The notes beneath the pieces were generated by a model that was given only the letters and a program-made list of their open reading frames with translations, was not told where the DNA came from and searched no databases. A DNA stretch of 45,478 nt from a virus (lineage: Duplodnaviria; Heunggongvirae; Uroviricota; Caudoviricetes): IMG/VR virus record IMGVR_UViG_2541047780_000004, one strand, 5' to 3'. Below are positions 5,662 through 44,897 of this stretch, one piece after another. Position 1 is the stretch's first letter. The number at the start of each line of letters is the position of its first letter. The position numbers and the translations under genes are program-made.

Positions 5662-5733
5662 TGAAGTGGTTTACTGAATTTGGCCACCTGAACAGAGGTG
5701 ATATGCTCACCTCAGAACAACACAGGTGCCATA

Positions 5734-6881
<1,148 letters not shown>

Positions 6882-13374: not shown

Positions 13375-14457
13375 TTAGAACTGATAAACCAGACCTACAG
13401 CGACGATGTCGTCGGTATCAATACCAGCTGTTTTGGTAAACTTACTATCGTCAATTAAGTTGATTTTGTAATCAACAAAAGTGGACATGTTTTTATTAAA
13501 GTAGTAAGTAGCACCGACATCGACATACTTGACTAAGTCTCGGTCACCATGAACACCAAGGTCTTTACCTTTTGACTGAAGGTAAGCAACAGATGGACGC
13601 AGACCGAAGTCAAACTGATATTGTGCTACTGCTTCAAAGTTTTGTGCTTTGTTTGCAATATGGTTATTACCAAAAACGGTCATATTCTGAGTTTCAGAAT
13701 ATGTGGTAGCCAGATAGATATTGTTCGCATCATATTTCAGGCCTGCAGCCCATACTTCCGCATTTTTGCCGGAGGCATTGAATTTGCTCTTACCATAGGC
13801 GACCTGACCGTCAGTGCGATCTGATTTAGCATAGGTTGCACCCACGCCGAATCCTTCATACTCATAAGTAGTGGAGAAACCGAAACCATCACCATTGGCT
13901 TCAGTTACGTCAGTGCGGTCATTTTTACCCTGATACTGAGCAGCAAAGTTCAGGCCATCGACCAGACCAAAGAAGTCGTTGTTACGATAAGTTGCAACAC
14001 CAGTAGTGCGACCAGTCATGAACACATCTGTTTGGGTCCAGGTATCACCACCGAATTCTGGCAGAACGTCAGTCCACGCACCGATGTCGTATGCTACACC
14101 GTAGTTACGGCCGTAATCGATTGAGCCGTAATCACCAAATTTCAGGCCTGCAAATGCAAGACGGGTTTTGTCTTTGGAAGAACCTTGAGATTCAGCACGG
14201 TTGCCTTTGAATTCATATTCCCACTGACCGAAACCAGTCAGTTGATCGTTGATTTGGGTTTCACCTTTGAAGCCAAGACGGGCATAAGTAGTATCACCAT
14301 CATCTGCATCATTAGAGGAGAAGTAGTGCTTGGCATTAACTTTCCCGTATAGATCCAGCTTGTTACTGTCTTTATTATAAATTTCAGCTGCCTGAGCAGA
14401 CATCGCCATCAGTACTGATGCAGCTACAGCAGAAATTGCCACTGTTAATTTTTTCAT
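13375..14457 (-). CDS. nmpC: Outer-membrane porin (NmpC/OmpC-family general bacterial porin), apparently intact
   Basis: 360-aa product from ATG 14455-14457 with AAGGG RBS; signal peptide, AEIYNKD start of mature porin, C-terminal VYQF; the longer ORF-track start is unlikely. Confidence 0.85.
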
Positions 14458-14785
14458 TGTACGCCCTTTTTTTGAACTTTTATTAAAAAATGATGTCACT
14501 GCGCGATAAATATTCATCTAATCAATGTGATTATTTCAAGATGTAAGTTTTAGTTTCTCATTTAATTTGTGAAGTAGATCTCTATTTTTATCTGAACCTT
14601 TTCTATCTAATCCTATTCATGGCTCTTGTCTGAACAAAAATAAATCTATTAGCTAATTTATATTAATGGCACTTATTTATAAGTGCTCTATAATTCTTTA
14701 GCTTAATTTAAACAAACTAAAAATAACATCGGAAATTATTAACTGGTTATTTGTTGAAGTTTTCTTATGCATTTGTGGTGGTGTT

Positions 14786-24463: not shown

Positions 24464-25492
24464 ATGGGATTGTTTACGACCCGCCAGTTACTCGGTTATA
24501 CCGAACAAAAAGTTAAATTTCGTGCGCTGTTTCTGGAGCTGTTTTTCCGCCGTACGGTGAATTTCCATACCGAAGAGGTGATGCTGGACAAAATTACCGG
24601 AAAAACGCCGGTGGCGGCCTATGTCTCCCCGGTTGTTGAAGGAAAAGTGCTGCGTCATCGTGGTGGTGAAACCCGCGTGTTGCGTCCGGGCTACGTCAAG
24701 CCGAAACACGAATTTAATTACCAGCAGGCGGTTGAGCGCCTTCCTGGTGAAGATCCATCTCAACTGAATGATCCGGCTTACCGCCGTCTGCGTATCATTA
24801 CCGATAACCTCAAACAGGAAGAGCACGCGATTGTCCAGGTGGAAGAAATGCAGGCGGTAAATGCTGTGTTGTATGGCAAATACACCATGGAAGGAGACCA
24901 GTTCGAGAAAATTGAGGTCGATTTTGGCAGGTCGACGAAGAATAACATCACTCAGGGTAGTGGTAAGGAGTGGTCAAAACAGGATCGTGACACGTTCGAT
25001 CCTACACATGATATTGACCTCTACTGCGACCTGGCCAGCGGTCTTGTGAATATTGCCATTATGGACGGTACCGTCTGGCGTCTTCTGAATGGTTTTAAGC
25101 TGTTCCGCGAAAAACTGGATACCCGTCGCGGTTCAAATTCTCAACTCGAAACGGCAGTGAAAGATCTGGGCGCAGTGGTGTCCTTCAAGGGGTATTACGG
25201 CGATCTGGCCATTGTGGTGGCGAAAACGTCTTATATAGCAGAAGACGGTATCGAAAAACGTTATCTTCCAGATGGCATGCTGGTTCTGGGGAATACTGCT
25301 GCAGATGGGATCCGTTGTTACGGTGCCATTCAGGATGCTCAGGCGTTGTCCGAAGGTGTGGTGGCCTCTTCCCGTTATCCGAAACACTGGCTGACGGTAG
25401 GGGATCCCGCCCGTGAATTTACCATGACGCAGTCCGCGCCGCTGATGGTGTTGCCGGACCCGGATGAGTTTGTGGTGGTACAGGTGAAATAA
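24464..25492 (+). CDS. E: Major capsid protein E
   Basis: 342-aa product strongly similar to lambda E as recalled. Confidence 0.95.
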   Translation: MGLFTTRQLLGYTEQKVKFRALFLELFFRRTVNFHTEEVMLDKITGKTPVAAYVSPVVEGKVLRHRGGETRVLRPGYVKPKHEFNYQQAVERLPGEDPSQLNDPAYRRLRIITDNLKQEEHAIVQVEEMQAVNAVLYGKYTMEGDQFEKIEVDFGRSTKNNITQGSGKEWSKQDRDTFDPTHDIDLYCDLASGLVNIAIMDGTVWRLLNGFKLFREKLDTRRGSNSQLETAVKDLGAVVSFKGYYGDLAIVVAKTSYIAEDGIEKRYLPDGMLVLGNTAADGIRCYGAIQDAQALSEGVVASSRYPKHWLTVGDPAREFTMTQSAPLMVLPDPDEFVVVQVK

Positions 25493-25501
25493 TCCGTGAG
25501 C

Positions 25502-25530
25502 GGGGGCGAAATGCCCCCGTGTCTTTTTTC
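25502..25530 (+). terminator. Hairpin plus T-tract immediately after the major capsid gene
   Basis: GGGGGC-GAAAT-GCCCCC followed by GTGTCTTTTTTC. Confidence 0.55.
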
Positions 25531-25543
25531 ACAGGGGGCTGAT

Positions 25544-25918
25544 ATGGCAACGAAAGAGCAAAATCTGAAACGGCTTGATGAACTGGCCCTGATTCTGGGG
25601 CGTGAGCCGGATATATCCGGGAGTGCCGCAGAGATAGCGCAGCGGGTGGCAGAATGGGAAGAGGAAATGCAGTCATCCGGCGATGATGTACAGGTTATGA
25701 ATATGGATATCCGGGAGCGGGAAACCGCGGCTCATGATGTTCGTGAGGAAACATCCGGCGCGTTAACGCGCATCAGAGTTCTGACCTGCCTCCATCTCTG
25801 TGGCGTTGATGGTGAAACGGGGGAATCCGTTGAGCTTGCGGATGTTGGTCGGGTGATTCTGATTATGTCCTCAGATGCAAAAACACACGTTGATGGTGGA
25901 ATGGCTGTTTATGCGTGA
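25544..25918 (+). CDS. FI: DNA-packaging protein FI
   Basis: ATG at 25544 downstream of the hairpin (ORF-track start 25496 is GTG inside the hairpin); acidic product with FI-like character. Confidence 0.7.
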   Translation: MATKEQNLKRLDELALILGREPDISGSAAEIAQRVAEWEEEMQSSGDDVQVMNMDIRERETAAHDVREETSGALTRIRVLTCLHLCGVDGETGESVELADVGRVILIMSSDAKTHVDGGMAVYA

Positions 25919-26264
25919 TTTTCAGAATGCCTTTGATGCCGCCCTTGCCGGGGTGGACAGTACGATTGTTGAAGTGATGGGCATCAGTGCGCAGTTCACC
26001 TCCGGTGCACAGCGTGGCGGCGAGGTTCATGGCGTTTTTGACGATCCGGAGTCGCTGGGTTTTGCCAGTAGTGGGATCCGTATTGAAGGAAGTAACCCGT
26101 CATTATTTGTGCTTACGGATACGGTTTGTGCTGTACGGCGTGGTGACACGCTGACCATTAACGGCGAGATGTTCTGGGTGGACCGTGTTTCTCCGGATGA
26201 CGGAGGGAGTTGTTATCTCTGGCTCAACCGGGGGCAACCACCTGCCGCCAGCCGTCGCCGCTGA
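25911..26264 (+). CDS. FII: Head completion protein FII
   Basis: ATG at 25911 (MRDFQNAFDAAL...) aligns with the lambda FII N-terminus; C-terminal motif WVDRVSPDDGGSC. Confidence 0.85.
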   Translation: MRDFQNAFDAALAGVDSTIVEVMGISAQFTSGAQRGGEVHGVFDDPESLGFASSGIRIEGSNPSLFVLTDTVCAVRRGDTLTINGEMFWVDRVSPDDGGSCYLWLNRGQPPAASRRR

Positions 26265-26275
26265 AAGGGGGATGT

Positions 26276-26854
26276 ATGGCCATAAAAGGTCTTGAGCAGG
26301 CCGTTGAAAACCTCAGCCGTATCAGCAAAACGGCAGTGCCTGGTGCCGCCGCAATGGCCATTAACCGCGTTGCTTCATCCGCGATATCGCAGTCGGCGTC
26401 ACTGGTTGCCCGTGAGACAAAGGTACGCCGGAAACTGGTAAAGGAAAGGGCCAGGCTGAAAAGGGCCACGGTCAAAAATCCGCAGGCCAGAATCAAAGTT
26501 AACCGGGGGGATTTGCCCGTAATCAGGCTGGGTAATGCGCGGGTTGTCCTTTCGCGCCGCAGGCGTCGTAAAAAGGGGCAGCGTTCATCCCTGAAAGGTG
26601 GCGGCAGCGTGCTTGTGGTGGGTAACCGTCGTATTCCCGGCGCGTTTATTCAGCAACTGAAAAATGGCCGCTGGCATGTCATGCAGCGTGTGGCCGGGAA
26701 AAACCGTTACCCCATTGATGTGGTGAAAATTCCGATGGCGGTGCCGCTGACCACGGCGTTTAAACAGAATATTGAGCGGATACGGCGTGAGCGTCTTCCG
26801 AAAGAGCTGGGCTATGCGCTGCAGCATCAACTGAGGATGGTAATAAAGCGATGA
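26276..26854 (+). CDS. Z: Minor tail protein Z
   Basis: ATG at 26276 after a G-rich RBS; lambda Z-like sequence. Confidence 0.85.
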   Translation: MAIKGLEQAVENLSRISKTAVPGAAAMAINRVASSAISQSASLVARETKVRRKLVKERARLKRATVKNPQARIKVNRGDLPVIRLGNARVVLSRRRRRKKGQRSSLKGGGSVLVVGNRRIPGAFIQQLKNGRWHVMQRVAGKNRYPIDVVKIPMAVPLTTAFKQNIERIRRERLPKELGYALQHQLRMVIKR

Positions 26855-27246
26855 AACATACTGAATTCCGTGCAGCCGTACTGGATGCACTGGAAAAACA
26901 TGACACCGGGGCGACGCTTTTTGATGGTCGCCCCGCTGTTTTTGATGAGGCGGATTTTCCGGCAATTGCCGTTTATCTCACCGGCGCTGAATACACGGGC
27001 GAAGAGCTGGACAGCGATACCTGGCAGGCGGAGCTGCATATTGAAGTTTTCCTGCCTGCTCAGGTGCCGGATTCAGAGCTGGATTCGTGGATGGAAAGCC
27101 GGATTTATCCGGCGATGAGCGATATCCCGGCACTGTCAGATTTGATCACCAGTATGGTGGCCAGTGGCTATGACTACCGGCGCGACGATGATGCGGGCCT
27201 GTGGAGTTCAGCCGATCTGACTTATGTCATTACCTATGAAATGTGA
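26851..27246 (+). CDS. U: Tail terminator protein U
   Basis: 131-aa product near-identical to lambda U as recalled. Confidence 0.9.
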
Positions 27247-27253
27247 GGACGAT

Positions 27254-27994
27254 ATGCCAACACCAAATCCTCTGGCACCGGTGAAAGGGGCCGGAACCAC
27301 ACTGTGGGTTTATAACGGGAGCGGCGACCCTTATGCAAACCCGCTTTCAGACAATGACTGGTCGCGTCTGGCAAAAATTAAAGACCTGACGCCCGGCGAA
27401 CTGACCGCTGAGTCCTATGACGACAGTTATCTCGATGATGAAGATGCGGACTGGACCGCGACCGGGCAGGGGCAGAAATCCGCCGGAGATACCAGCTTCA
27501 CGCTGGCGTGGATGCCCGGAGAGCAGGGGCAGCAGGCGCTGCTGGCGTGGTTTAATGAAGGTGATACCCGTGCCTATAAAATCCGCTTCCCGAACGGCAC
27601 GGTCGATGTGTTCCGTGGCTGGGTCAGCAGTATCGGTAAGGCGGTGACGGCGAAGGAAGTGATCACCCGTACGGTGAAGGTCACCAATGTGGGCCGTCCG
27701 TCAATGGCAGAAGATCGCAGTACGGTGACGGCGGCAACCGGTATGACCGTGACGCCTGCCAGCTCCTCGGTGGTGAAAGGGCAGAGCACCACGCTGACCG
27801 TGGCCTTCCAGCCGGAGGGCGCAACTGACAAGAGCTTCCGTGCGGTGTCAGCGGATAAAACAAAAGCCACCGTGTCGGTCAGTGGTATGACCATCACCGT
27901 GAACGGCGTTGCTGCAGGCAAGGTCAACATTCCGGTTGTATCCGGTAATGGTGAACTTGCTGCGGTTGCAGAAATCACTGTCACCGACAGTTAA
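27254..27994 (+). CDS. V: Major tail protein V
   Basis: ATG at 27254; lambda V-like sequence with a C-terminal Ig-like region. Confidence 0.9.
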
Positions 27995-28009
27995 TCCGGA
28001 GAGTCAGCG

Positions 28010-28432
28010 ATGTTCCTGAAAACCGAATCATTTGAACATAACGGCGTGACCGTCACGCTTTCTGAACTGTCAGCCCTGCAGCGTATTGAGCATCTCGCCC
28101 TGATGAAACAGCAGGCAGAACAGGCGGAGTCAGACAGCAACCGGCAGGTTACTGTGGAAGACGCCATCAGAACCGGTGCTTTTGTGGTGGCGATGTCCCT
28201 GTGGCATAACCATCCGCAGAAGACAAAGCAGCCTTCCATGAATGAAGCCGTTAAACAGATTGAGCAGGAAGTGCTTACCACCTGGCCCGCGGAGGCAATT
28301 TCTCATGCTGAAAACGTGGTGTACCGGCTGTCCGGTATGTATGGGTTTGTGGTGAATGATGCCCCTGACCAGGCAGAGGACTCCGGGCCTGCAGAGCCTG
28401 TTTCTGCGGGAAAGTGTTCGACGGTGAGCTGA
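28010..28432 (+). CDS. G: Tail assembly chaperone G
   Basis: 140-aa product similar to lambda G; contains the slippery heptamer G GGA AAG at 28408-28414 near its 3' end. Confidence 0.9.
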   Translation: MFLKTESFEHNGVTVTLSELSALQRIEHLALMKQQAEQAESDSNRQVTVEDAIRTGAFVVAMSLWHNHPQKTKQPSMNEAVKQIEQEVLTTWPAEAISHAENVVYRLSGMYGFVVNDAPDQAEDSGPAEPVSAGKCSTVS

Positions 28433-28848
28433 GTTTTGCCCTGAAACTGGCGCGAGAGATGGGGCGACCTGACTGGCGCGCCATGCTTGCCGGGATGTCA
28501 TCCACGGAGTATGCCGACTGGCACCGCTTTTACAGTACCCATTATTTTCATGATGTTCTGCTGGATATGCACTTTTCCGGGCTGACGTACACTGTGCTCA
28601 GCCTGTTTTTCAGCGATCCGGATATGCATCCGCTGGATTTCAGTTTGCTGAACCGGCGTGAGGATGACGAAGAGCCTGAAGATGATGTGCTGATGCAGAA
28701 AGCGGCAGGGCTTACCGGAGGCGTCCGCTTTGACCCGGACGGAAATGAAGTTATCCCCGCTTCCCCGGATATGGCGGGCATGACGGAGGATGACGTAATG
28801 CTGATGACAGTATCAGAAGGGATCGCAGGAGGAGTCCGGTATGGCTGA
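28414..28848 (+). CDS. T: Tail assembly protein T (made as a G-T fusion by -1 programmed frameshift)
   Basis: ORF in the -1 frame relative to G, starting at the slippery site GGGAAAG; conserved lambda G/T arrangement. Confidence 0.8.
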   Translation: MFDGELSFALKLAREMGRPDWRAMLAGMSSTEYADWHRFYSTHYFHDVLLDMHFSGLTYTVLSLFFSDPDMHPLDFSLLNRREDDEEPEDDVLMQKAAGLTGGVRFDPDGNEVIPASPDMAGMTEDDVMLMTVSEGIAGGVRYG

Positions 28849-29869
28849 ACCGGTAGGCGATCTGGTCGTTGATTTAAGTCTGGATGCGGCCAGATTTGAC
28901 GAGCAGATGGCCAGAGTCAGGCGTCATTTTTCCGGTACGGAAAGTGATGCGAAAAAAACAGCGGCAGTCGTTGAACAGTCGCTGAGCCGACAGGCGCTGG
29001 CTGCACAGAAAGCGGGGATTTCCGTCGGGCAGTATAAAGCCGCCATGCGTATGCTGCCTGCACAGTTCACCGACGTGGCCACGCAGCTTGCAGGCGGGCA
29101 AAGCCCGTGGCTGATCCTGCTGCAACAGGGTGGTCAGGTTAAGGACTCCTTCGGCGGGATGATCCCCATGTTCCGGGGGCTTGCCGGTGCGATCACCCTG
29201 CCGATGGTCGGGGCCACCTCGCTGGCGGTGGCGACCGGTGCGCTGGCGTATGCCTGGTATCAGGGTAACTCAACCCTGTCCGATTTCAACAAAACGCTGG
29301 TCCTTTCCGGCAATCAGTCGGGTCTGACGGCAGATCGTATGCTGGTCCTGTCCAGAGCCGGGCAGGCGGCAGGGCTGACGTTTAACCAGACCAGCGAGTC
29401 ACTCAGCGCACTGGTTAAGGCGGGAGTAAGCGGTGAGGCTCAGATTGCATCCATCAGCCAGAGTGTGGCGCGTTTCTCCTCTGCATCCGGCGTGGAGGTG
29501 GACAAGGTCGCTGAAGCCTTCGGGAAGCTGACCACTGACCCGACGTCGGGGCTGACGGCGATGGCGCGCCAGTTCCATAACGTAACGGCGGAGCAGATTG
29601 CGTATGTTGCTCAGTTGCAGCGTTCCGGCGATGAATCCGGGGCATTGCAGGCGGCGAACGAGGCCGCAACGAAAGGGTTTGATGACCAGACCCGACGCCT
29701 GAAAGAGAACATGGGCACGCTGGAAACCTGGGCAGACAGGACAGCACGGGCATTCAAATCCATGTGGGATGCGGTGCTGGATATTGGTCGTCCTGATACC
29801 GCTCAGGAGATGCTGATTAAGGCAGAGGCTGCGTTTAAGAAAGGTAAGCTTCCGGGGAACTCATATTGA
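28841..29869 (+). pseudogene. H: Tape measure protein H, N-terminal fragment interrupted by an IS66-family insertion
   Basis: Product matches the lambda H N-terminus up to ...AEAAFKK (about 29843); the frame then runs into IS sequence and stops at 29869. Confidence 0.85.
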
Positions 29870-29934
29870 CGCGTTTTTCAGGCGCGCGTCATCGGCGGCG
29901 CATAGTAAGCGACTCGTCAGAACCGTATTGATAT

Positions 29935-31501
29935 TTACTGAGAGCTCAGATCAACTTTCCAGGGCAACAGATCGCGTACCCGGTTTGCCGGCCAGTCCTG
30001 GATATGTTCAATGACGTAACGCAGCCACTTTTCTGGCTCCACATTGTTCAGACGGCATGTGCCGATCAGCGAGTACAACACCGCCGCATGTTCACCACCG
30101 CTGTCGGAACCCGCGAACATCCAGTTTTTCCGGCCTACGGCCACTCCCCGTAAGGCGTTCTCTGCGATGTTGTTGTCGATTTCCACCCAGCCATTACTGC
30201 AGTACACGTTCAGTGCATCCCACTGTTTCAGCAGGTATGCGAACGCTTTTGCCGTATCTGAGTGACGCGACAGTGTTTTCATCTGTTGCTGTATCCAGTC
30301 ATACAGTGACTGCATCAGTGGCGCGGCTCTGGCTTTTCTTGCCGCCAGACGCTGTTCTGCTGAACAGCCCCGGACCTCTGCCTCGATGGCATACAGTTCA
30401 CCGATACGCTGCAGGGCTTCCGTGGTGATGTAGGTGGGCGCTCTTGCATGCACATCGTGGATTTTTCTCCGGGCATGAGCCATACACGCGGCTTCCGTTA
30501 TTCTGCCGGATTCGTATAAGGTAACCACCGTAAGCATCGGCCTGAAGCACACCGCTGTAACCGGCCAGGTGATTTTGTGGATGGATACCTTTCCGGTCCG
30601 GACTGTACGCGAACCAGACCGCCGGGGGCATCTGTGAACCGGCGTTACGGTCATCACGGACGTAGACCCACAGCCGGGCTGTCCGGGTTTTACCGCTGCC
30701 CGGCTCCTGGACCGGGACGGGGATATCATCAGCATGGACTTTACCGGGCATCAGCACATACTGGCGCAGGACGTCATACAGCGGCTCCAGCAGTTCAGCA
30801 ACAGCACCTGTCCAGCGCCCCAGTGTGGCACGGCTCAGCTCCACTCCCTGACGACGGTATATTTCTGACTGGCGGTATAACGGCAGATGGTCTGCATATT
30901 TCCCGGTGACAACATGGGCCAGAAGCCCCGCTCCGGCATAACTGCGTGCAATGGGTTTTGAAGGTACTGGTGCCTGCACGATATGGTCGCACCGGCAACA
31001 GGCCTGTTTCGGACGTTGTGTTTCGATAACCTTAAAGGCGCTGCTGATAAGCTCCAGTTGCTCTGACACATCACATCCCAGAGAACTGAGTTCACCACCA
31101 CAGGCAGGACAGCATTCCTCTTCCGGCCGGATAACCCGGGTTTCACGGGGAAGTGAGGCCGGTAACGGTTTACGGGCTGAAGACTGGCGCAGGGCGGATG
31201 GCAGTACCGGGTCATATTGCTCACCCAGCGTTTCCGCCATTTCTTCCTGAAGTGCGCTGATTCGCTCCTGTGCTTCCTGTATCTGCCGTTCGGTTTTTGC
31301 ACGAAGTTTTTCTGAGCTTTTACCGAACTGCATACGTTGCAGTTTCGCAACCAGCGCCTTCAGCCGGTTGATTTCGGAAGCATAAGCCGCCACCCGCTGT
31401 GAGAGCAGGCGGTTGTATTCAGCCATCTGGCGGATGGTGTCCTGTTGCGTCTGCAACAGTGCCCGCAGGCGGGCGTTCTCATGAGCAAGTGAGGTGTCCA
31501 T
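29935..31501 (-). pseudogene. IS66-family transposase (ISEc8-like), split into two overlapping frames by a frameshift
   Basis: N-terminal ORF 30398..31501 and C-terminal ORF 29935..30735 are consecutive parts of one transposase; the frame switch is near 30510-30530 (after ...ADAYGGY). Confidence 0.7.
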
Positions 31502-31520
31502 ATCCTCACTTTACAACGGG

Positions 31521-31868
31521 TTATATGCGGATTCCAGCGCGTTCCGTTCGTTTCGGGTGCTTCCAGTTGATACCTTCAAGAAGCATGGATAACTGAGCCG
31601 GAGTAAGGTGCACCTTGCCGTCACGGGTGACTGGCCAGACGAAGCGGCCCCGCTCCAGGCGTTTGGTGAAGAGGCACAGTCCGTCACTGTCAGCCCACAA
31701 CACTTTTATCTGGTCACCCCGGCGTCCGCGGAAGATGAACAGGTGTCCGGAGAACGGGTCATCCTTCAGGACGTTCTGAACTTTTGATGCCAGGCCGTTA
31801 AAGCCATTTCGCATATCGGTGATACCTGCAACCAGCCAGATACGCGAACCTGCAGGGAGAGATATCAT
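31521..31868 (-). CDS. IS66-family accessory protein TnpB (orf2)
   Basis: 115-aa product with the conserved IS66 Orf2 sequence; ATG overlaps the orf1 stop (ATGA). Confidence 0.8.
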   Translation of the reverse strand: MISLPAGSRIWLVAGITDMRNGFNGLASKVQNVLKDDPFSGHLFIFRGRRGDQIKVLWADSDGLCLFTKRLERGRFVWPVTRDGKVHLTPAQLSMLLEGINWKHPKRTERAGIRI

Positions 31869-32545
31869 CAGTGGCTGCTCCCTTTTATTTCGCGGATAAG
31901 TGTCTGTAATAACGCCGGCGTCAGTTTACCTTTAAGCCTGAGAGTTCCGGCCGGCAGAACCAGCTCACAACACAGACTGTCGGACGGTGTATTTATCTGC
32001 TCTGGTTCCTGTGCGGGGGCCGGGATTTTATTATCCGGCTCCGGCGTTAACGTCACGGGAAGCAGTGCCGGCATATTTTTTCCGGAAGGCAGCAGGCCAC
32101 CTTTCCGGTATTGATGGCGCCAGTTGAAGAGCAGGTTATCGTTGATTCCGTTTTCCCGGGCGATCTGCGCCACACAGGCTCCGGGCTGCAGTGACTGCTC
32201 CACTAAGGCGATTTTAAACTCATAAGGGAAGTTGGGCCGCCGGGGACGTTTTTTTACCACGGGGGCTTCGGATATAACGGTGCTTTCAGGACGTACGACT
32301 GGTACCGTGGAAAATTGTCCGTAAAGGCAGGCATCAAGTTCCTGCTCCGACATGCCTGCGGGCAAAGGCCACGAAAGGCCAGCTCTCCGAAAGCGCACGA
32401 ACATACTACAAACTGTTGATTTTGGTACACCCAGGCGACGCCCGGCCACAACCCGGGGTAAATGTTCTTCAAAGTGAAGACGTAAAGCTTCAGTGATCCA
32501 GGTCCGGTGTTTCATACGATAGTGTCCATTAAAAATGATGGACAT
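31868..32545 (-). CDS. IS66-family orf1 (TnpA-like HTH protein), unusually long
   Basis: 225-aa ORF; C-terminal half has the IS66 Orf1-like HTH region; the N-terminal about 100 aa is an extension and the real start may be internal. Confidence 0.65.
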   Translation of the reverse strand: MSIIFNGHYRMKHRTWITEALRLHFEEHLPRVVAGRRLGVPKSTVCSMFVRFRRAGLSWPLPAGMSEQELDACLYGQFSTVPVVRPESTVISEAPVVKKRPRRPNFPYEFKIALVEQSLQPGACVAQIARENGINDNLLFNWRHQYRKGGLLPSGKNMPALLPVTLTPEPDNKIPAPAQEPEQINTPSDSLCCELVLPAGTLRLKGKLTPALLQTLIREIKGSSH

Positions 32546-32686
32546 TATTTTTGTAGAGCCGGAGGAAACAGACCAGACGGTCTAAATGAGCCGGTTACGG
32601 CGCATACGAACGATCGTGGTTTGATAACGGTTGATTTATTTTGTTGCACAGGGGCGATCGCCAGGCAGGTACCGGAGGCGGGCTCT

Positions 32687-32785
32687 GAAGTACTGAGTAG
32701 GGTGATCGCGTCAGGCCGCGAAGTACTGACTCGGGGATTAATAGCAGGTGATGATGTACTGACCCGGGAATGACTCCGGGCTGAT
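32687..32785 (+). repeat. Three tandem 33-bp direct repeats with an IS66 inverted-repeat-like core, near the junction of the two IS66 elements
   Basis: Units starting at 32687, 32720 and 32753, each beginning GA(A/T)GTACTGA; the third unit (GTACTGACCCGGGAATGACTC) resembles the terminal IR at 29844. Confidence 0.5.
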
Positions 32786-32907
32786 TCAGGTTCTTATTCG
32801 CTGTCAGCCCGCGTGGTTGCTGGTCTGGCTCATTTCCTGCCGTCAGGAGTTCAACTCCCGACTGCAGGTTATGGCCCGGTGCACGAACACCTGACGGCAG
32901 GTATCAC

Positions 32908-34473
32908 TCACCCGGAGAAGGTAAATCCCTCAAGAGGCAGCAACTCTGCCAGTCGCTCCTCCGGCCACTCCGGCAGACGCATCAGGACGTCTGTCAACCA
33001 GGCATGCGGCTCCAGACCGTTGCGTTTCGCGGTTTCCAGCAAGCTCATTATTTGCGCGGCGCGTTCTCCCGCCATCTGCGAACCGGCGAACAGCCACGAT
33101 TTTCTGCCCAGAACCACGTTTTTGATGGCCCGTTCACACACATTATTATCCAGCGGCACCGCACCATCTTCCAGGAAGCGGCTCAGTTCCACGCGATGAG
33201 ACAGCGCATAGGCAATGGCTTTGTGTAATGCCCTTCCCGGAGAACATTGCGGTTCCTGCTCTTCAAGCCATGACCACAGTTCTTCCAGTATCGGACGGGC
33301 ATAACGCTGTCGCCACTGGCGGATTTTTTCCACGGGGCGGCTACTGATCTTCTTCTCAAGACGGTACAACCCCGCGATTTTCTTCACGGCTATGGCAGCC
33401 CGTGGATCTTTACTGATTTTATACAGGTCGGCGAAGCCCCTGCGGGCATGGGCCCAGCATCCGGCCAGCGTGATCTCCGGCACTTTGTTTGCCAGAGTCC
33501 GGTAAGCTTTATGTCCGTCGACAACCAGCGTCCCGCCCCAGCCCTGAAGCCAGTTTTCAGGATACTCATGGCTACGTCCGGTCCGGCAGTCGAAGCACAC
33601 AACTGACGGTCCCGTCCTTTCTCCACTGACGTATGCCCACAGATAACCGGAGCAGGATTTACCGCCTTTCTTCGTGTTCAGGATCTTCAGGGTAGTCTCA
33701 TCTGCATGCACCACCGGACGGTTTATCAACTCGCGATGGAGTAACGCCGCCAGGGGAGATAATGCGGCACCCGCCGCGCCAACCATGTCAGCCATCGAAC
33801 TGACGGGCAGCCCGACATCTGAACGGGCAAAGACCTGTTGCTGGCGATACAGAGGCAGGTGGTCACCGTATTTATTGATGATCACCTGTGCGATGACTGA
33901 TGGCTCAACGGCACTTTTCGGGAGGATATGTGCCGGCATTTCACCGCTGAACACCTTCTGGCAACAGGGACAACTGTATTGTGGACGGACATAACGGTTC
34001 ACCACAAAGTGAGCGGGAATATACTCCAGCTTTTCACTCACCGCATCGCGGATATAGTGCAGCGGCTCGTCACATTCAGGGCAATGGTCAGTGTCCGGCT
34101 GGATAATTTTTTCCACCCGTGGAAGATGAACCGGTAAGGGTTTGCGTATCGGGCGTGAACGGGACGCTTTTTCGTCTTCTTCAGGGGATTGCGGGAGCAG
34201 TTTATCCAGATGTGCGGTAAGCGCGGCGATATCGGCATCAACATCCTCTTCGAACAGGGAGCGTTGCATACCAGCCAGCGTTCCACATTTTTTTCCGAAG
34301 CGCTGTTGACGAACCAGTTTCAGCATTTCTTCCAGAAGCTGGATGCGCCGGCTTTTCTCCAGTAATTCCCGCTCTTTTTCGGCATTCTCCGACATGACTT
34401 CTTGTACCATGGCAAGTGCCATAGCACGCAGTTTTTCGATGTCATTCGTGGTGTTGAGAGCGGAGATATCCAT
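32908..34473 (-). CDS. IS66-family transposase (orf3), apparently intact
   Basis: Start chosen at ATG 34471-34473 (MDISALNTT...) by analogy with the MDTSLAHEN start of the other element; DDE-type IS66 transposase sequence with a CxxC-containing region. Confidence 0.85.
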   Translation of the reverse strand: MDISALNTTNDIEKLRAMALAMVQEVMSENAEKERELLEKSRRIQLLEEMLKLVRQQRFGKKCGTLAGMQRSLFEEDVDADIAALTAHLDKLLPQSPEEDEKASRSRPIRKPLPVHLPRVEKIIQPDTDHCPECDEPLHYIRDAVSEKLEYIPAHFVVNRYVRPQYSCPCCQKVFSGEMPAHILPKSAVEPSVIAQVIINKYGDHLPLYRQQQVFARSDVGLPVSSMADMVGAAGAALSPLAALLHRELINRPVVHADETTLKILNTKKGGKSCSGYLWAYVSGERTGPSVVCFDCRTGRSHEYPENWLQGWGGTLVVDGHKAYRTLANKVPEITLAGCWAHARRGFADLYKISKDPRAAIAVKKIAGLYRLEKKISSRPVEKIRQWRQRYARPILEELWSWLEEQEPQCSPGRALHKAIAYALSHRVELSRFLEDGAVPLDNNVCERAIKNVVLGRKSWLFAGSQMAGERAAQIMSLLETAKRNGLEPHAWLTDVLMRLPEWPEERLAELLPLEGFTFSG

Positions 34474-34515
34474 ACAGGGGAGTATACCACTCCAGATACG
34501 GATATTCATTATTTT

Positions 34516-34908
34516 TCACTGAGTTAGCAGTGTATTTTGCGTGTTTTCAGGGCGCAGTTCAGGTTCATTCTGCCAGACCCATTTCGTCAGGTCATGTCCC
34601 TTAACCTGCTGCCAGTCAACACCGGCAATCAGCCAGTTAAACTCGTCGGGAGTGAGGTGCCAGGCAGCGTCATTTGCACGTGGCCAGCGGAAGCTGCCTT
34701 TGTGCAGACGGCGGGTACACAACCACACCCCGTGTTTATCCCACCGGAGAACTTTGATACGCGAACGGGCTTTGTTAACAAAGACGAAGGCGGCTCCCTC
34801 ATGCCATGTCGACCGGAGTTCATCCTGTATATACTGCGTCAGTGAGTCGATGCCCCGGCGCATGTCAACAGGTTTAATTGCGATGAAGACATTATCAGGA
34901 CTGAGCAT
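34516..34908 (-). CDS. IS66-family TnpB (orf2)
   Basis: Start at ATG 34906-34908 (MLSPDNVFIAIKPVDMRRGI...), overlapping the orf1 stop. Confidence 0.8.
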   Translation of the reverse strand: MLSPDNVFIAIKPVDMRRGIDSLTQYIQDELRSTWHEGAAFVFVNKARSRIKVLRWDKHGVWLCTRRLHKGSFRWPRANDAAWHLTPDEFNWLIAGVDWQQVKGHDLTKWVWQNEPELRPENTQNTLLTQ

Positions 34909-35224
34909 ATTTGAGTGCCCTGAAGACATCGGTAAGTTGTGACGGCTGACAGCACATCCGTACTCCACCGGGAAGGAAGAGCGTGACTGGCTCATTCGTG
35001 ACGGGCTGTGGTACATCAGCATGCAGTGGTGGCGCAATATGAACGGGAAGAACGGTCGGTTCATTTGCCCGGCGTTCAGCTTTTGCGACATCCTGCGGCC
35101 ATTCGCGAAGTGATGTGAAGGGAATATCGTTGAGTTCACAGTATTGCTGACGTGTAAGACCACTGGCGCGCCAGGCAGCAACGTGCTGCCTTTTCTGTTC
35201 AATGGTCCATCGGGGTTTTGACAT
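34895..35224 (-). CDS. IS66-family orf1 (TnpA-like)
   Basis: 109-aa product with an HTH-like N-terminus (MSKPRWTIEQKRQHVAAW...). Confidence 0.8.
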   Translation of the reverse strand: MSKPRWTIEQKRQHVAAWRASGLTRQQYCELNDIPFTSLREWPQDVAKAERRANEPTVLPVHIAPPLHADVPQPVTNEPVTLFLPGGVRMCCQPSQLTDVFRALKYAQS

Positions 35225-35311
35225 CGATTATCTCCGGTAAGTTGGTGAATGGATGTCGGTAATACTAACTGACCGAAGATCCCTGTGAAGATGACTTCCC
35301 CGTAACGACAC

Positions 35312-36899
35312 TAAGAAAGCGGACGACATCTGGAATCTGCGCAAGGATGATTATTTTGTTAACGATGAAGCGCGGGCGCGTTACTGGGATGATCGTGAAA
35401 AGGCCCGTCTTGCGCTTGAAGCCGCCCGAAAGAAGGCTGAACAGCAGAGTCAACAGGACAAAAATGCGCAGCAGCAGAGCGATACCGAAGCATCACGGCT
35501 GAAATATACCGAAGAGGCGCAGAAGGCTTACGAACGGCTGCAGACACCGCTGGAGAAATATACCGCCCGTCAGGAAGAACTGAACAAGGCACTGAAAGAC
35601 GGGAAAATCCTGCAGGCAGATTACAACACGCTGATGGCGGCGGCGAAAAAGGATTATGAAGCGACGCTGAAAAAGCCGAAACAGTCCGGCGTGAAGGTGT
35701 CTGCGGGCGATCGTCAGGAAGACAGTGCTCATGCTGCCCTGCTGACGCTTCAGGCTGAACTCCGGACGCTGGAGAAGCATGCCGGAGCAAATGAGAAAAT
35801 CAGCCAGCAGCGCCGGGATTTGTGGAAGGCGGAGAGTCAGTTCGCGGTACTGGAGGAGGCGGCGCAACGTCGCCAGCTGTCTGCACAGGAGAAATCCCTG
35901 CTGGCGCATAAAGATGAGACGCTGGAGTACAAACGCCAGCTGGCTGCACTTGGCGACAAGGTTACGTATCAGGAGCGCCTGAACGCGCTGGCGCAGCAGG
36001 CGGATAAATTCGCACAGCAGCAACGGGCAAAACGGGCCGCTATTGATGCGAAAAGCCGGGGGCTGACTGACCGGCAGGCAGAACGGGAAGCCACGGAACA
36101 GCGCCTGAAGGAACAGTATGGCGATAATCCTCTGGCGCTGAATAACGTCATGTCAGAGCAGAAAAAGACCTGGGCGGCTGAAGACCTGCTTCGCGGGAAC
36201 TGGATGGCAGGCCTGAAGTCCGGCTGGAGTGAGTGGGAAGAGAGTGCCACGGACAGTATGTCGCAGGTTAAAAGTGCTGCCACGCAGACCTTTGATGGTA
36301 TTGCGCAGAATATGGCGGCGATGCTGACCGGCAGTGAACAGAACTGGCGCAGCTTCACCCGTTCCGTGCTGTCCATGATGACAGAAATTCTGCTTAAGCA
36401 GGCAATGGTGGGGATTGTCGGGAGTATCGGCAGCGCTATTGGCGGGGCTGTTGGTGGCGGCGCATCCGCGTCAGGCGGTACAGCCATTCAGGCCGCTGCG
36501 GCGAAACTCCATTTTGCAACCGGAGGATTTACGGGAACCGGCGGCAAATATGAGCCAGCGGGGATTGTTCACCGTGGTGAATTTGTCTTCACGAAGGAGG
36601 CAACCAGCCGGATTGGCGTGGGAAATCTCTACCGGCTGATGCGCGGCTATGCCACCGGCGGTTATGTCGGTGCCACCGGCGGTTATGTCGGTGGCACCGG
36701 AAGTCCGGCGCAAATGCGGCGTTCAGAGGGTATCAGGTTTGAGCAGAACAACAACGTGGTGATTCAGAACGACGGTACGAATGGTCTGCCAGGTCCACAG
36801 ATGATGAAGGCGGTGTATGACATGGCCCGCAAGGGTGCCCGTGATGAAATCCAGGCACAGATGCGCGATGGTGGTCTGTTCTCCGGAGGTGGACGATGA
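35312..36899 (+). pseudogene. H: Tape measure protein H, C-terminal fragment
   Basis: The H reading frame resumes exactly at the right-hand copy of the 8-bp repeat (KKADDIWNLRKDD...) and continues to the lambda-like H C-terminus (...RDGGLFSGGGR). Confidence 0.85.
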
Positions 36900-37225
36900 A
36901 AACCTTCCGCTGGAAAGTGAAACCCGGGATGGATGTGACATCGGCTCCTTCCGTCAGGGAGGTGCGCTTTGGTGATGGCTATTCCCAGCGTGCGCCTGCC
37001 GGGCTGAACGCTGACCTGAAAACGTACAGCGTGACGCTGTCTGTCTCCCGTGAGGAGGCCACGGCGCTGGAGTCGTTTCTGGCTGAGCACGGGGGCTGGA
37101 AGGCCTTTCTGTGGACGCCGCCTTATGGTTACAGGCAGATAAAGGTGACCTGCGCAAAATGGTCGTCGCGGGTCAGTATGCTGCGTGTTGAGTTCAGCGC
37201 AGAGTTTGAACAGGTGGTGAACTGA
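36896..37225 (+). CDS. M: Minor tail protein M
   Basis: 109-aa product similar to lambda M; ATG overlaps the H stop. Confidence 0.9.
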   Translation: MKTFRWKVKPGMDVTSAPSVREVRFGDGYSQRAPAGLNADLKTYSVTLSVSREEATALESFLAEHGGWKAFLWTPPYGYRQIKVTCAKWSSRVSMLRVEFSAEFEQVVN

Positions 37226-37923
37226 TGCAGGATATCCGGCAGGAAACATTGAATGAATGCACCCGTGCGGAGCAGTCGGCCAGCGTGGTGCTCTGGGAAA
37301 TCGATCTGACAGAGGTCGGTGGAGAACGTTATTTTTTCTGTAATGAGCAGAACGAAAAAGGTGAGCCGGTCACCTGGCAGGGGCGACAGTATCAGCCGTA
37401 TCCCATTCAGGGGAGTAGTTTTGAACTGAATGGCAAAGGCACCAGTACGCGCCCCACGCTGACGGTTTCTAACCTGTACGGTATGGTCACCGGGATGGTG
37501 GAAGATCTGCAGAGTCTGGTCGGCGGAACGGTGGTCAGGCGTAAGGTTTACGCCCGTTTTCTGGATGCGGTGAACTTCGTCAACGGAAACAGCGACGCCG
37601 ATCCGGAGCAGGAGGTGATCAGCCGCTGGCGCATCGAGCAGTGCAGCGAACTGAGTGCGGTCAGTGCCTCCTTTGTACTGTCCACACCGACGGAAACGGA
37701 TGGTGCCGTTTTTCCGGGGCGCATCATGCTGGCTAATACCTGCACCTGGACCTATCGCGGTGATGAGTGCGGTTATCACGGTCCGGCGGTCGCGGATGAA
37801 TATGATCAGCCGACTTCCGATATCACGAAGGATAAATGCAGCAAATGCCTGAGCGGCTGTAAGTTTCGCAATAACGTCGGCAACTTTGGCGGCTTCCTTT
37901 CCATTAACAAACTTTCGCAGTAA
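37225..37923 (+). CDS. L: Minor tail protein L
   Basis: 232-aa product similar to lambda L, including the C-terminal Cys cluster. Confidence 0.9.
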   Translation: MQDIRQETLNECTRAEQSASVVLWEIDLTEVGGERYFFCNEQNEKGEPVTWQGRQYQPYPIQGSSFELNGKGTSTRPTLTVSNLYGMVTGMVEDLQSLVGGTVVRRKVYARFLDAVNFVNGNSDADPEQEVISRWRIEQCSELSAVSASFVLSTPTETDGAVFPGRIMLANTCTWTYRGDECGYHGPAVADEYDQPTSDITKDKCSKCLSGCKFRNNVGNFGGFLSINKLSQ

Positions 37924-37928
37924 ATCCC

Positions 37929-38672
37929 ATGACAGAGACAGAATCAGCGATTCTGGCGCATGCCCGGCGATGTGCGCCAGCGGAGTCGTGCGGCTTCGTG
38001 GTGAGAGCGCCGGAGGGGGAAAGATATTTTCCCTGCGTGAATATCTCCGGTGAGCCGGAGGCGTATTTCCGGATGGCTCCGGAGGACTGGCTGCAGGCAG
38101 AGATGCAGGGTGAGATTGTGGCGCTGGTCCACAGTCATCCCGGTGGTCTGCCCTGGCTGAGTGAGGCCGACCGGCGGCTGCAGGTGCAGAGTGATTTGCC
38201 GTGGTGGCTGGTCTGCCGGGGGGCGATTCATAAGTTCCGCTGTGTGCCGCATCTCACCGGGCGGCGCTTTGAGCACGGGGTGACGGACTGTTACACGCTG
38301 TTCCGGGACGCTTACCATCTGGCGGGGATTGAGATGCCGGACTTTCATCGTGAGGATGACTGGTGGCGTAACGGCCAGAATCTCTATCTTGATAATCTGG
38401 AGGCCACAGGGCTGTATCAGGTGCCGTTGTCAGCGGCGCAGCCGGGCGATGTGCTGCTGTGCTGCTTTGGTTCATCGGTGCCGAATCATGCCGCTATTTA
38501 CTGTGGTGACGGCGAGCTGCTGCACCATATTCCTGAACAACTGAGTAAACGAGAGAGGTATACCGACAAATGGCAGCGACGCACACACTCCCTCTGGCGT
38601 CACCGGGCATGGCGCGCATCTGCCTTTACGGGGATTTACAACGATTTGGCCGCCGCATCGACCTTCGTGTGA
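37929..38672 (+). CDS. K: Tail assembly protein K (MPN/JAB plus NlpC/P60-like)
   Basis: 247-aa product similar to lambda K; HSHP motif. Confidence 0.9.
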   Translation: MTETESAILAHARRCAPAESCGFVVRAPEGERYFPCVNISGEPEAYFRMAPEDWLQAEMQGEIVALVHSHPGGLPWLSEADRRLQVQSDLPWWLVCRGAIHKFRCVPHLTGRRFEHGVTDCYTLFRDAYHLAGIEMPDFHREDDWWRNGQNLYLDNLEATGLYQVPLSAAQPGDVLLCCFGSSVPNHAAIYCGDGELLHHIPEQLSKRERYTDKWQRRTHSLWRHRAWRASAFTGIYNDLAAASTFV

Positions 38673-42822: not shown

Positions 42823-42836
42823 TTTGTGGAGTGAAT

Positions 42837-44897
42837 ATGGCAGTACAGATTTCAGGCGTGCTGAAAGACGGTGCAGGAAAACCGATACAGAACTGCACCA
42901 TTCAGCTCAAAGCAAAACGTAACAGCACCACGGTTGTGGTGAACACGGTGGCCTCAGAAAATCCGGATGAAGCCGGACGTTACAGCATGGATGTCGAGTA
43001 TGGCCAGTACAGCGTTATCCTGCTGGTTGAAGGTTTTCCGCCTTCACATGCCGGGGCCATCACCGTGTATGAGGATTCTAAGCCGGGGACATTGAATGAT
43101 TTTCTGGGCGCTGCAACAGAAGATGATGTTCGTCCGGAGGCACTGTATCGTTTTGAAAAGATGGTGGAAGAGGTGGCACGCAACGCTGAAGCCGCCTCTC
43201 AGAGCGCAGCGGCAGCAAAGAAATCAGAAACAGCAGCGGCATCGTCCAGGAATGCGGCGAAAACATCAGAGACGAATGCAGGTAACAGCGCGAAAGCGGC
43301 AGCTTCTTCAAAAACAGCCGCACAAAACGCAGCAACAGCGGCAGAACGTTCAGAGACAAATGCCCGTGCGTCAGAAGAAGCCTCCGCAGACAGTGAAGAG
43401 GCTTCCCGCCGTAATGCAGAGTCAGCCGCTGAAAATGCCGGAGTCGCCACCACAAAAGCGCGGGAGGCCGCAGCAGACGCAACAAAGGCCGGGCAGAAAA
43501 AGGATGAGGCTCTGTCGGCAGCGACACGGGCTGAAAAGGCGGCAGACCGCGCAGAAGTCGCAGCGGAAGTGACTGCAGAGCCCTATGCGAATATAGTGCC
43601 GCCGCTGCCTGATGTGTGGATACCGTTTAACGATTCACTGGATATGATTGCGGGTTTTTCTCCGGGCTATAAAAAAATAGCTATTGGTGACGATGTGGTT
43701 CAGGTCGCCAGTGATAAACAGGTTAATTTCAGTCGCGCATCAACGGCAACATATATCAACAAATCTGGCGAACTGAAAACGGCGGAAATTAATGAGCCGC
43801 GATTTGAGTGTGATGGCCTGCTTATTGAGGGACAAAGAACGAACTACATGCTCAATTCGGAAAGTCCAGCCAGCTGGGGGAAGTCATCAAACATGGATGT
43901 GCCCGAAACCGGGACAGATAGTTTTGGTTTTACTTATGGAAAGTTTGTCTGCAACGATTCTCTGGTTGGGCAAACTTCGGCTATTAATATGGCATCAATT
44001 GCTGCAACAAAGTCAGTTGATGTCTCAGGCGATAACAAGTACGTGACAACCTCATGCCGTTTTAAAACAGAACGACAGGTAAGGTTACGTATACGGTTTG
44101 ATAAGTATGATGGTAGTGCAACAACTTTTCTTGGCGATGCGTACATTGATACGCAAACGCTTGAAATTAATATGACAGGTGGGGCTGCCGGCAGAATTAC
44201 GGCACGAGTCAGGAAGGATAAGACCACAGGCTGGATTTTTGCAGAGGCAACGATTCAGGCAATTGATGGTGAGTTAAAAATAGGCTCTCAGATACAGTAT
44301 TCTCCTGAGCGGGGTGGGGCAACAGTATCTGGTGACTATATTTATCTTGCCACCCCACAAGTAGAGAATGGGCCGTGTGTATCATCATTTATTATTTCAG
44401 GAGGCAGCGCAACGACAAGAGCCAGTGATTTGGTTAGTATCCCCACCAGAAATAATCTTTATAAGTTACCATTTACTTTTTTACTTGAGATTCATAAAAA
44501 CTGGGATATTGCACCAAACGCCGCACCCCGCGTGTGGGATATAGCAGCAGCCAATACCGGGCAATCAGCAATTGCAGCAATCAACAGAGGTAGTGGTAAG
44601 TTATATATGAGTCTGTCAAACCCTTCAGGCTTGTATGTTAATAGCGCAGCGACAGATGTATTTGCAGAGAAAACCACATTTGGATGTATTGCAAAAGCTG
44701 ATGGTCACTTTCATGTGGTGACAAATGGTAAAGCGGTTAATGAAGTTTATTGTGAATATAATGGTGTGACCGCTGATAAAAATATCCGATTTGGAGGGCA
44801 GACGAATACTGGAGAACGACATCTGTTTGGCCATATTCGCAATTTCCGCATATGGCATAAAGAATTAAATGACAGGCAATTAAAAGAGGTCGTATGA
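42837..44897 (+). CDS. Side tail fibre protein (prophage tail-fibre N-terminal domain, Ala-rich repeat shaft, divergent C-terminal domain)
   Basis: ATG at 42837 five nt after GGAG (ORF-track start 42831 is GTG); N-terminus MAVQISGVLKDGAGKPIQNCTIQL is typical of lambdoid Stf proteins; central repeats (SETAAASSRNAAKTSETNAGNSAKAAASS...); C-terminal about 430 aa unassigned. Confidence 0.75.
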   Translation: MAVQISGVLKDGAGKPIQNCTIQLKAKRNSTTVVVNTVASENPDEAGRYSMDVEYGQYSVILLVEGFPPSHAGAITVYEDSKPGTLNDFLGAATEDDVRPEALYRFEKMVEEVARNAEAASQSAAAAKKSETAAASSRNAAKTSETNAGNSAKAAASSKTAAQNAATAAERSETNARASEEASADSEEASRRNAESAAENAGVATTKAREAAADATKAGQKKDEALSAATRAEKAADRAEVAAEVTAEPYANIVPPLPDVWIPFNDSLDMIAGFSPGYKKIAIGDDVVQVASDKQVNFSRASTATYINKSGELKTAEINEPRFECDGLLIEGQRTNYMLNSESPASWGKSSNMDVPETGTDSFGFTYGKFVCNDSLVGQTSAINMASIAATKSVDVSGDNKYVTTSCRFKTERQVRLRIRFDKYDGSATTFLGDAYIDTQTLEINMTGGAAGRITARVRKDKTTGWIFAEATIQAIDGELKIGSQIQYSPERGGATVSGDYIYLATPQVENGPCVSSFIISGGSATTRASDLVSIPTRNNLYKLPFTFLLEIHKNWDIAPNAAPRVWDIAAANTGQSAIAAINRGSGKLYMSLSNPSGLYVNSAATDVFAEKTTFGCIAKADGHFHVVTNGKAVNEVYCEYNGVTADKNIRFGGQTNTGERHLFGHIRNFRIWHKELNDRQLKEVV

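Follow-up and report, generated by a model that had tools for sequence, protein, structure and literature searches.

A broken tnpC gene in a prophage

The question raised by this locus is whether a transposase gene spread over two reading frames has been inactivated by mutation, has been wrongly sequenced, or is normally read in both frames. The gene is an IS66-type tnpC at positions 29935-31501 on the minus strand of the window, by which we mean the whole 45,478-nucleotide stretch of Caudoviricetes DNA analysed here (IMG/VR record IMGVR_UViG_2541047780_000004). Two overlapping minus-strand open reading frames lie within it: ORF1, from 31501 to 30398 (367 aa), and ORF2, from 30735 to 29935 (266 aa). 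A first-pass annotation had reported a frameshifted IS66 transposase at 30398-30735, with the change of frame near 30510-30530, and these 338 nt are the exact overlap of the two open frames. Both frames match parts of the same protein profiles. Of the 284 positions in the Pfam profile DDE_Tnp_IS66, 1-139 match ORF1 residues 186-328 and 141-283 match ORF2 residues 73-215. The NCBIfam model transpos_IS66 is cut likewise between the two ORFs, at positions 215 and 220 of 387.

Alignment to intact copies of the same element confirmed the frameshift and placed the change of frame at 30519/30520, inside the interval proposed from the reading frames. A single 5-bp gap lies directly after window position 30519, where CGCCC is missing on the plus strand, or GGGCG on the coding strand, so that GGT TAC CGG GCG TTA TAC in the intact gene becomes GGT TAC CTT ATA C in the window. 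This gap is the sole indel between the window element and the three intact copies aligned to it (L002, L003 and L004), from which it otherwise differs by one to five substitutions each, two in the comparison with L003 and two in that with L004. The gene is accordingly 1,567 bp long in the window versus 1,572 bp in copies annotated as intact. When GGGCG was put back, one ORF of 523 aa with a single terminal stop was obtained, and the repaired protein corresponds to WP_000381395.1 (identical over the 327 + 194 residues compared). Because the re-inserted bases yield one continuous ORF, the split is no chance pattern: this is one gene whose reading frame breaks off midway through the catalytic domain.

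The deletion divides tnpC into three stretches, all on the minus strand. The 5' part (30520-31501) carries native codons 1-327 within ORF1, with the LZ_Tnp_IS66 and zf-IS66 domains, DDE_Tnp_IS66 positions 1-139 and the conserved residues D258 and D322. It is followed, as the ORF list and the alignment both indicate, by a tail of 40 out-of-frame residues at 30398-30519, which ends with the stop codon at 30398-30400. The 3' part (29935-30519) retains the last 194 codons and the stop in native form, but in the +1 frame (ORF2) and severed from the start codon; it encodes DDE_Tnp_IS66 positions 141-283, the CxAHARR signature, D444/E449 and the IS66 C-terminal element (DDE_Tnp_IS66_C). Repeat-mediated slippage was considered as the origin of the deletion and dropped, as no direct repeat was found in the sequence flanking GGGCG.

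Identity of the insertion sequence

The first-pass annotation had called the transposase ISEc8-like, a likeness that does not hold in any close sense. A search of 5,426 complete Escherichia coli genomes with the tnpC region gave 99.7% DNA identity to genes that RefSeq calls 'IS66-like element ISCro1 family transposase'. The whole element is about 99.7-99.8% identical in DNA to copies bearing that name, with 99.74% over 2,701 columns in the comparison with L004, the 5-bp gap counted. ISEc8 from E. coli O157:H7 belongs to the IS66 family, shares the three-gene layout and the order of TnpC domains, and aligns end to end. Its TnpC, however, is only about 58-59% identical (WP_000998048.1), the DNA match is about 71% and covers query positions 213-1075 only, about half the gene, and its tnpA has 381 nt versus 678 nt in the window. 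Given 99.7% DNA identity on one side and about 71% DNA and 59% protein identity on the other, we assign the element, by its sequence, to ISCro1 rather than ISEc8, as a pseudogenised member of the IS66 family; the name ISCro1 follows RefSeq product names, not ISfinder or the C. rodentium ICC168 reference sequence. ISCro1 was first named in Citrobacter rodentium ICC168 and occurs widely in E. coli, on chromosomes as well as on plasmids.

The window copy of ISCro1 occupies 29905-32598 on the minus strand and is 2,694 bp long (2,699 bp when intact). Its limits were set where similarity to the copies in L002, L003 and L004 stops, since an inverted-repeat finder missed repeats as imperfect as these: the terminal inverted repeats read GTAAGCGACTC... 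and GTAACCGGCTC..., beginning GTAAGCG and GTAACCG. The element is flanked by the target duplication GGCGCATA, at 29897-29904 on the left and 32599-32606 on the right. IS66-family elements typically have 8-bp direct repeats and are 2.7-2.8 kb long (PMC3281130, Table 2), and an ISCro1 insertion has been found to alter afa expression in ST131 (PMC8764528).

The three genes follow one another on the minus strand as tnpA-tnpB-tnpC, and the stop of tnpA overlaps the start of tnpB by one base. The intact tnpA gene (31868-32545) encodes 225 aa and matches the NCBIfam model IS66_access_TnpA with 295.8 bits; its product, WP_001339397.1, also occurs in the intact ISCro1 of L004. The equally intact tnpB gene (31521-31868, 115 aa) matches Pfam TnpB_IS66 and NCBIfam IS66_TnpB, and its product is WP_000624622.1, present in intact elements. 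The models IS66_access_TnpA, IS66_TnpB and transpos_IS66 each score above their cut-offs. All four domains of an IS66 TnpC (LZ_Tnp_IS66, zf-IS66, DDE_Tnp_IS66 and DDE_Tnp_IS66_C) are encoded, though not in one polypeptide. The window copy thus shares with intact ISCro1 copies identical TnpA and TnpB proteins, the same ends and the 8-bp length of the target duplication; it differs from them in the five missing tnpC bases, in the truncated TnpC and in being nested in another insertion sequence, ISEc49. The ISCro1 TnpA is far longer than that of ISEc8: its helix-turn-helix matches fall at residues 102-159, and the roughly 100 residues N-terminal to them form an extension without a Pfam match of its own.

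Consequences for the transposase

We aligned the TnpC proteins of ISCro1, ISEc8 and ISEc49, the latter two being about 58-59% and 32% identical to that of ISCro1, respectively. Invariant in this three-way alignment are D258 (in HADD), D322, C341 with A343-R347 (CxAHARR), D444-N446 and E449. We take the IS66 family to have a D, D, E catalytic motif in which the second D is followed by a CwAH-rR signature. On the strength of this motif and of the conservation in the three sequences, D258, D322 and E449 are presumably the catalytic triad; no solved structure of a relative was found.

With the frame broken after residue 327, C341 and all that follows it are lost, and the native sequence ends five residues past D322. 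Translation from the normal start would give 327 native residues followed by 40 out-of-frame ones. Such a truncated TnpC would keep the leucine zipper, the zinc finger and the first two conserved aspartates, and would be without CxAHARR, E449 and the C-terminal element. Because these last three are absent, the product is not expected to be a working DDE transposase. This copy of ISCro1 is therefore, judging from its sequence, almost certainly non-autonomous, and the earlier description of it as probably inactive is supported by the loss of the signature and of the conserved glutamate from the truncated protein.

Distribution of the deleted allele

The frequency of the deletion was examined with a 120-bp query centred on the junction. 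At least 80% of this query is covered in 2,441 records, of which about 90 full-coverage matches were inspected. The deleted allele occurs in 42 complete chromosomes of E. coli from many laboratories, in 41 of them at 100% identity and in one at 99.2%, while all other full-coverage matches listed (about 90) span 125 bp without a gap and correspond to an intact tnpC. Among the 42 are more than 10 separate ATCC 25922-type assemblies and four of CFT073. RefSeq labels the allele 'frameshifted' in all three records inspected, namely ATCC 25922 (DR76_RS08120), CFT073 (C_RS17390) and Nord58. The frameshift allele is thus real and inherited, and as a pseudogene already known and annotated in public records it is an ordinary case. 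For annotation purposes, the locus is best described as a pseudogene of ISCro1 tnpC that has lost 5 bp, and neither as two ORFs nor as ISEc8, and it has little import beyond that.

These records bear directly on two readings under which the gene would still produce a full-length transposase. One is a sequencing or assembly error in the window that masks an intact gene, a sequencing error having been offered as an option when the frameshift was first noted. An intact allele does exist in the same nested context in two genomes, which is the one thing in favour of an error, there being otherwise nothing specific that points to it. The same deletion is found in 42 complete records, however, and the surrounding composite of the two insertion sequences matches that of ATCC 25922 at 100% identity along its 5,468 bp, junction included. 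The site itself is equally unpromising for an error: GGGCG is not a homopolymer, no homopolymer of at least six bases lies in the region where the frames overlap, and losses of 5 bp are atypical of platform errors. With 42 complete records carrying an identical allele, a sequencing error is ruled out for practical purposes, and we regard it as extremely improbable. The frames could also be imagined to be joined into a full-length transposase, as in IS3 and IS1, by transcriptional slippage or by programmed frameshifting on the ribosome, and the overlap of 338 nt superficially resembles the orfA/orfB arrangement of the IS3 family, where two overlapping frames jointly cover one transposase. In the IS3 and IS1 families, however, this layout is a conserved one that requires a slippery heptamer (PMC3281130), whereas the one in the window stems from a 5-bp deletion confined to one lineage. 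A programmed -1 shift with a conserved motif typifies IS3- and IS5/IS427-type elements, and IS66 elements have extra ORFs instead (PMC3281130). The two-frame layout occurs in 42 of the 2,441 records covering the site; since the other full-coverage matches listed (about 90) are gapless, it is not a property of ISCro1. Moreover, passing from ORF1 to ORF2 would require a +1 or -2 shift instead of the usual -1. The overlap contains no zero-frame X XXY YYZ heptamer, its sole heptamer being out of frame, and it lacks A or T runs of six bases or longer; a rescued product would still have the residues around R328 and A329 lost or altered. Programmed frameshifting is rejected on the direction of the shift, the lack of a slippery site and the lack of conservation, and its probability is virtually nil.

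Nesting in ISEc49 and movement of the composite

All 42 deleted copies (42/42) sit nested in ISEc49, as does the copy in the window. There, an intact ISEc49 surrounds the deleted ISCro1, which is separated from one ISEc49 end by 53 bp (61 bp counting the GGCGCATA duplication). The terminal 61 bp of ISEc49, at the end downstream of its tnpC, occupy 29844-29904 on the minus strand, start with GTAAGCTTCCGGGGAA and form an inverted repeat with the end at 35311. The main body of ISEc49 (32599-35311, minus strand) is 100% identical to the copy in L001, where the genes are annotated as intact. It carries tnpC (32908-34473; WP_000354986.1, with Pfam and NCBIfam matches), tnpB (34516-34908; WP_000950648.1) and tnpA (34895-35224; WP_000042910.1), all on the minus strand and all intact. 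The first reading of the sequence had missed this nesting: ISEc49 is not simply adjacent to ISCro1 but encloses it and carries it along.

The resulting ISEc49::ISCro1 composite spans 29844-35311 (5,468 bp), begins with GTAAGCTTCCGGGGAA and ends with its imperfect inverted copy. It interrupts a lambdoid tape-measure gene on the plus strand, the 5' part of which lies at 28841-29843, where the matches to phage tape-measure genes end, and the 3' part at 35312-36899, with a match to Pfam Tape_meas_lam_C; both parts were delimited by alignment to L004. On either side, the composite is flanked by TAAGAAAG, at 29836-29843 on the left and, according to the alignment to L004, at 35312-35319 on the right, and the uninterrupted tape-measure gene of L004 has a single TAAGAAAG. 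The same composite is found beside agn43 in ATCC 25922, where it is 100% identical over 5,468 bp, and in CFT073, with 2 substitutions. At this second site it is flanked on both sides by GTTAATGC, in ATCC 25922, CFT073, Nord58, B19695 and FDAARGOS_1289. The pseudogene in the window and the one by agn43 in ATCC 25922 and CFT073 are therefore alike in allele and in composite, and differ in that one composite lies in a tape-measure gene between copies of TAAGAAAG and the other adjoins agn43 between copies of GTTAATGC.

One composite is thus present at two sites, bounded at both by the outer ends of ISEc49 and by separate 8-bp duplications. Because each site carries its own duplication, the 5.47-kb composite transposed as one unit through the ISEc49 ends. 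The ISEc49 transposase would have carried it into the tape-measure gene by acting on these outer ends. The second insertion site indicates that ISEc49 has been recently active and is able to carry 2.7 kb of foreign DNA. What is new here is the nesting in an intact ISEc49 and the insertion of the composite in a prophage, which we regard as a neat detail of natural history more than as a discovery. The allele and the composite together make a handy lineage marker common to CFT073- and ATCC 25922-type strains.

The arrangement at 25000-38000 of the window had no match covering at least 80% among the 5,426 complete E. coli genomes, and the exact junction was absent from species-representative genomes and phage records. 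Apparent 79% matches to 25000-38000 were set aside, as in them the phage genes are joined to an ISCro1 copy that is unrelated and sits in a terminase gene. In Nord58 (L006, 8449-10761), the annotation marks the tnpC and tnpA genes of the composite's ISEc49 as frameshifted, and comparison with the window shows 4 gap positions, which reflect either further decay or assembly errors.

Order of events

In two genomes, B19695 (L007, 6501-11973) and FDAARGOS_1289 (L008, 6501-11973), the composite at the agn43 site has an intact tnpC encoding WP_000381395.1 and differs from that in the window by the 5 bp alone. The deletion, the nesting, both insertion sites and the intact ancestor can be read directly from these sequences. 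As composites with an intact tnpC exist at the agn43 site, the deletion would have followed the nesting, and the insertion into the prophage would have followed the deletion. The proposed order is that ISEc49 inserted beside agn43, ISCro1 then inserted into ISEc49, the 5-bp deletion arose in the tnpC of the nested ISCro1, and the composite finally inserted into the prophage.

The tnpC part covered by the query matches 3 places in L007 and 6 in L008, the genomes with an intact nested copy, as opposed to one in 38 of the 42 chromosomes with the deleted allele (38/42), where no second matching place was found. This contrast fits, if weakly, a copy that does not transpose by itself, the comparison being one of 42 genomes with 2 and of related strains. 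Taken with the observations above, we consider it very likely that the tnpC of this ISCro1 was inactivated by a single inherited 5-bp deletion and that the dead copy spreads only as cargo of ISEc49.

Possible mobilisation in trans and persistence of the truncated gene

A non-autonomous copy could still move on its own ISCro1 ends if a transposase were supplied in trans, either by ISEc49 or by an intact ISCro1 elsewhere in the genome, and rescue by the neighbouring element had been suggested in the first-pass annotation. The window copy has kept both of its ISCro1 ends intact, along with tnpA and tnpB, and the element is prolific: C. rodentium ICC168 harbours 24 copies (PMC3072379), and the 120-bp query matches as many as 22 places in a single E. 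coli genome. An intact ISCro1 elsewhere in the genome might thus, in principle, act on these ends and mobilise the window copy. Not one of the 42 deleted copies (0/42) lies outside ISEc49, however, and the lack of a second ISCro1 matching that tnpC part in 38 of the 42 host chromosomes also speaks against such movement. As for ISEc49, its TnpC is only 32% identical to that of ISCro1, and the terminal repeats of the two elements share little past GTAAGC; on these grounds cross-recognition appears unlikely, and rescue by the neighbouring transposase with it. Overall, movement in trans on the ISCro1 ends strikes us as a most unlikely course. A different role for the broken gene would be that the truncated 367-aa protein has been retained because it binds DNA and inhibits or regulates transposition of the ISCro1 type. 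The fragment does contain the leucine-zipper and zinc-finger domains, and the allele is unchanged across many strains. Clonal descent at one locus accounts for this persistence, though, no similar truncation was seen to have arisen independently a second time, and there is no sign of selection, the composites being identical or nearly so. Retention for such a function is very improbable, and we are nearly as sceptical that the 367-aa TnpC, if expressed, inhibits incoming ISCro1 copies in a trans-dominant manner, a role that, if true, could partly account for most of the allele-bearing chromosomes having no other ISCro1 copy. Inactivation by the inherited deletion, with spread as ISEc49 cargo, is the reading we retain.

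The prophage and its other genes

Since the composite splits the tape-measure gene, tail assembly is probably defective, and the prophage is very probably unable to build tails. The prophage extends from an integrase gene at 1-1143 to a tail fibre gene at 42831-44897. Its early region contains, on the plus strand, a further mobile element, an IS3-family-like orfA/orfB pair of consecutive ORFs at 5698-6036 (112 aa) and 6063-6881 (272 aa, with rve integrase-core domains); a transposase encoded in two frames is normal in IS3-family orfA/orfB elements. Between the replication and late-gene regions, the minus strand encodes a porin of Gram-negative type at 13375-14517 (Porin_1, 380 aa).
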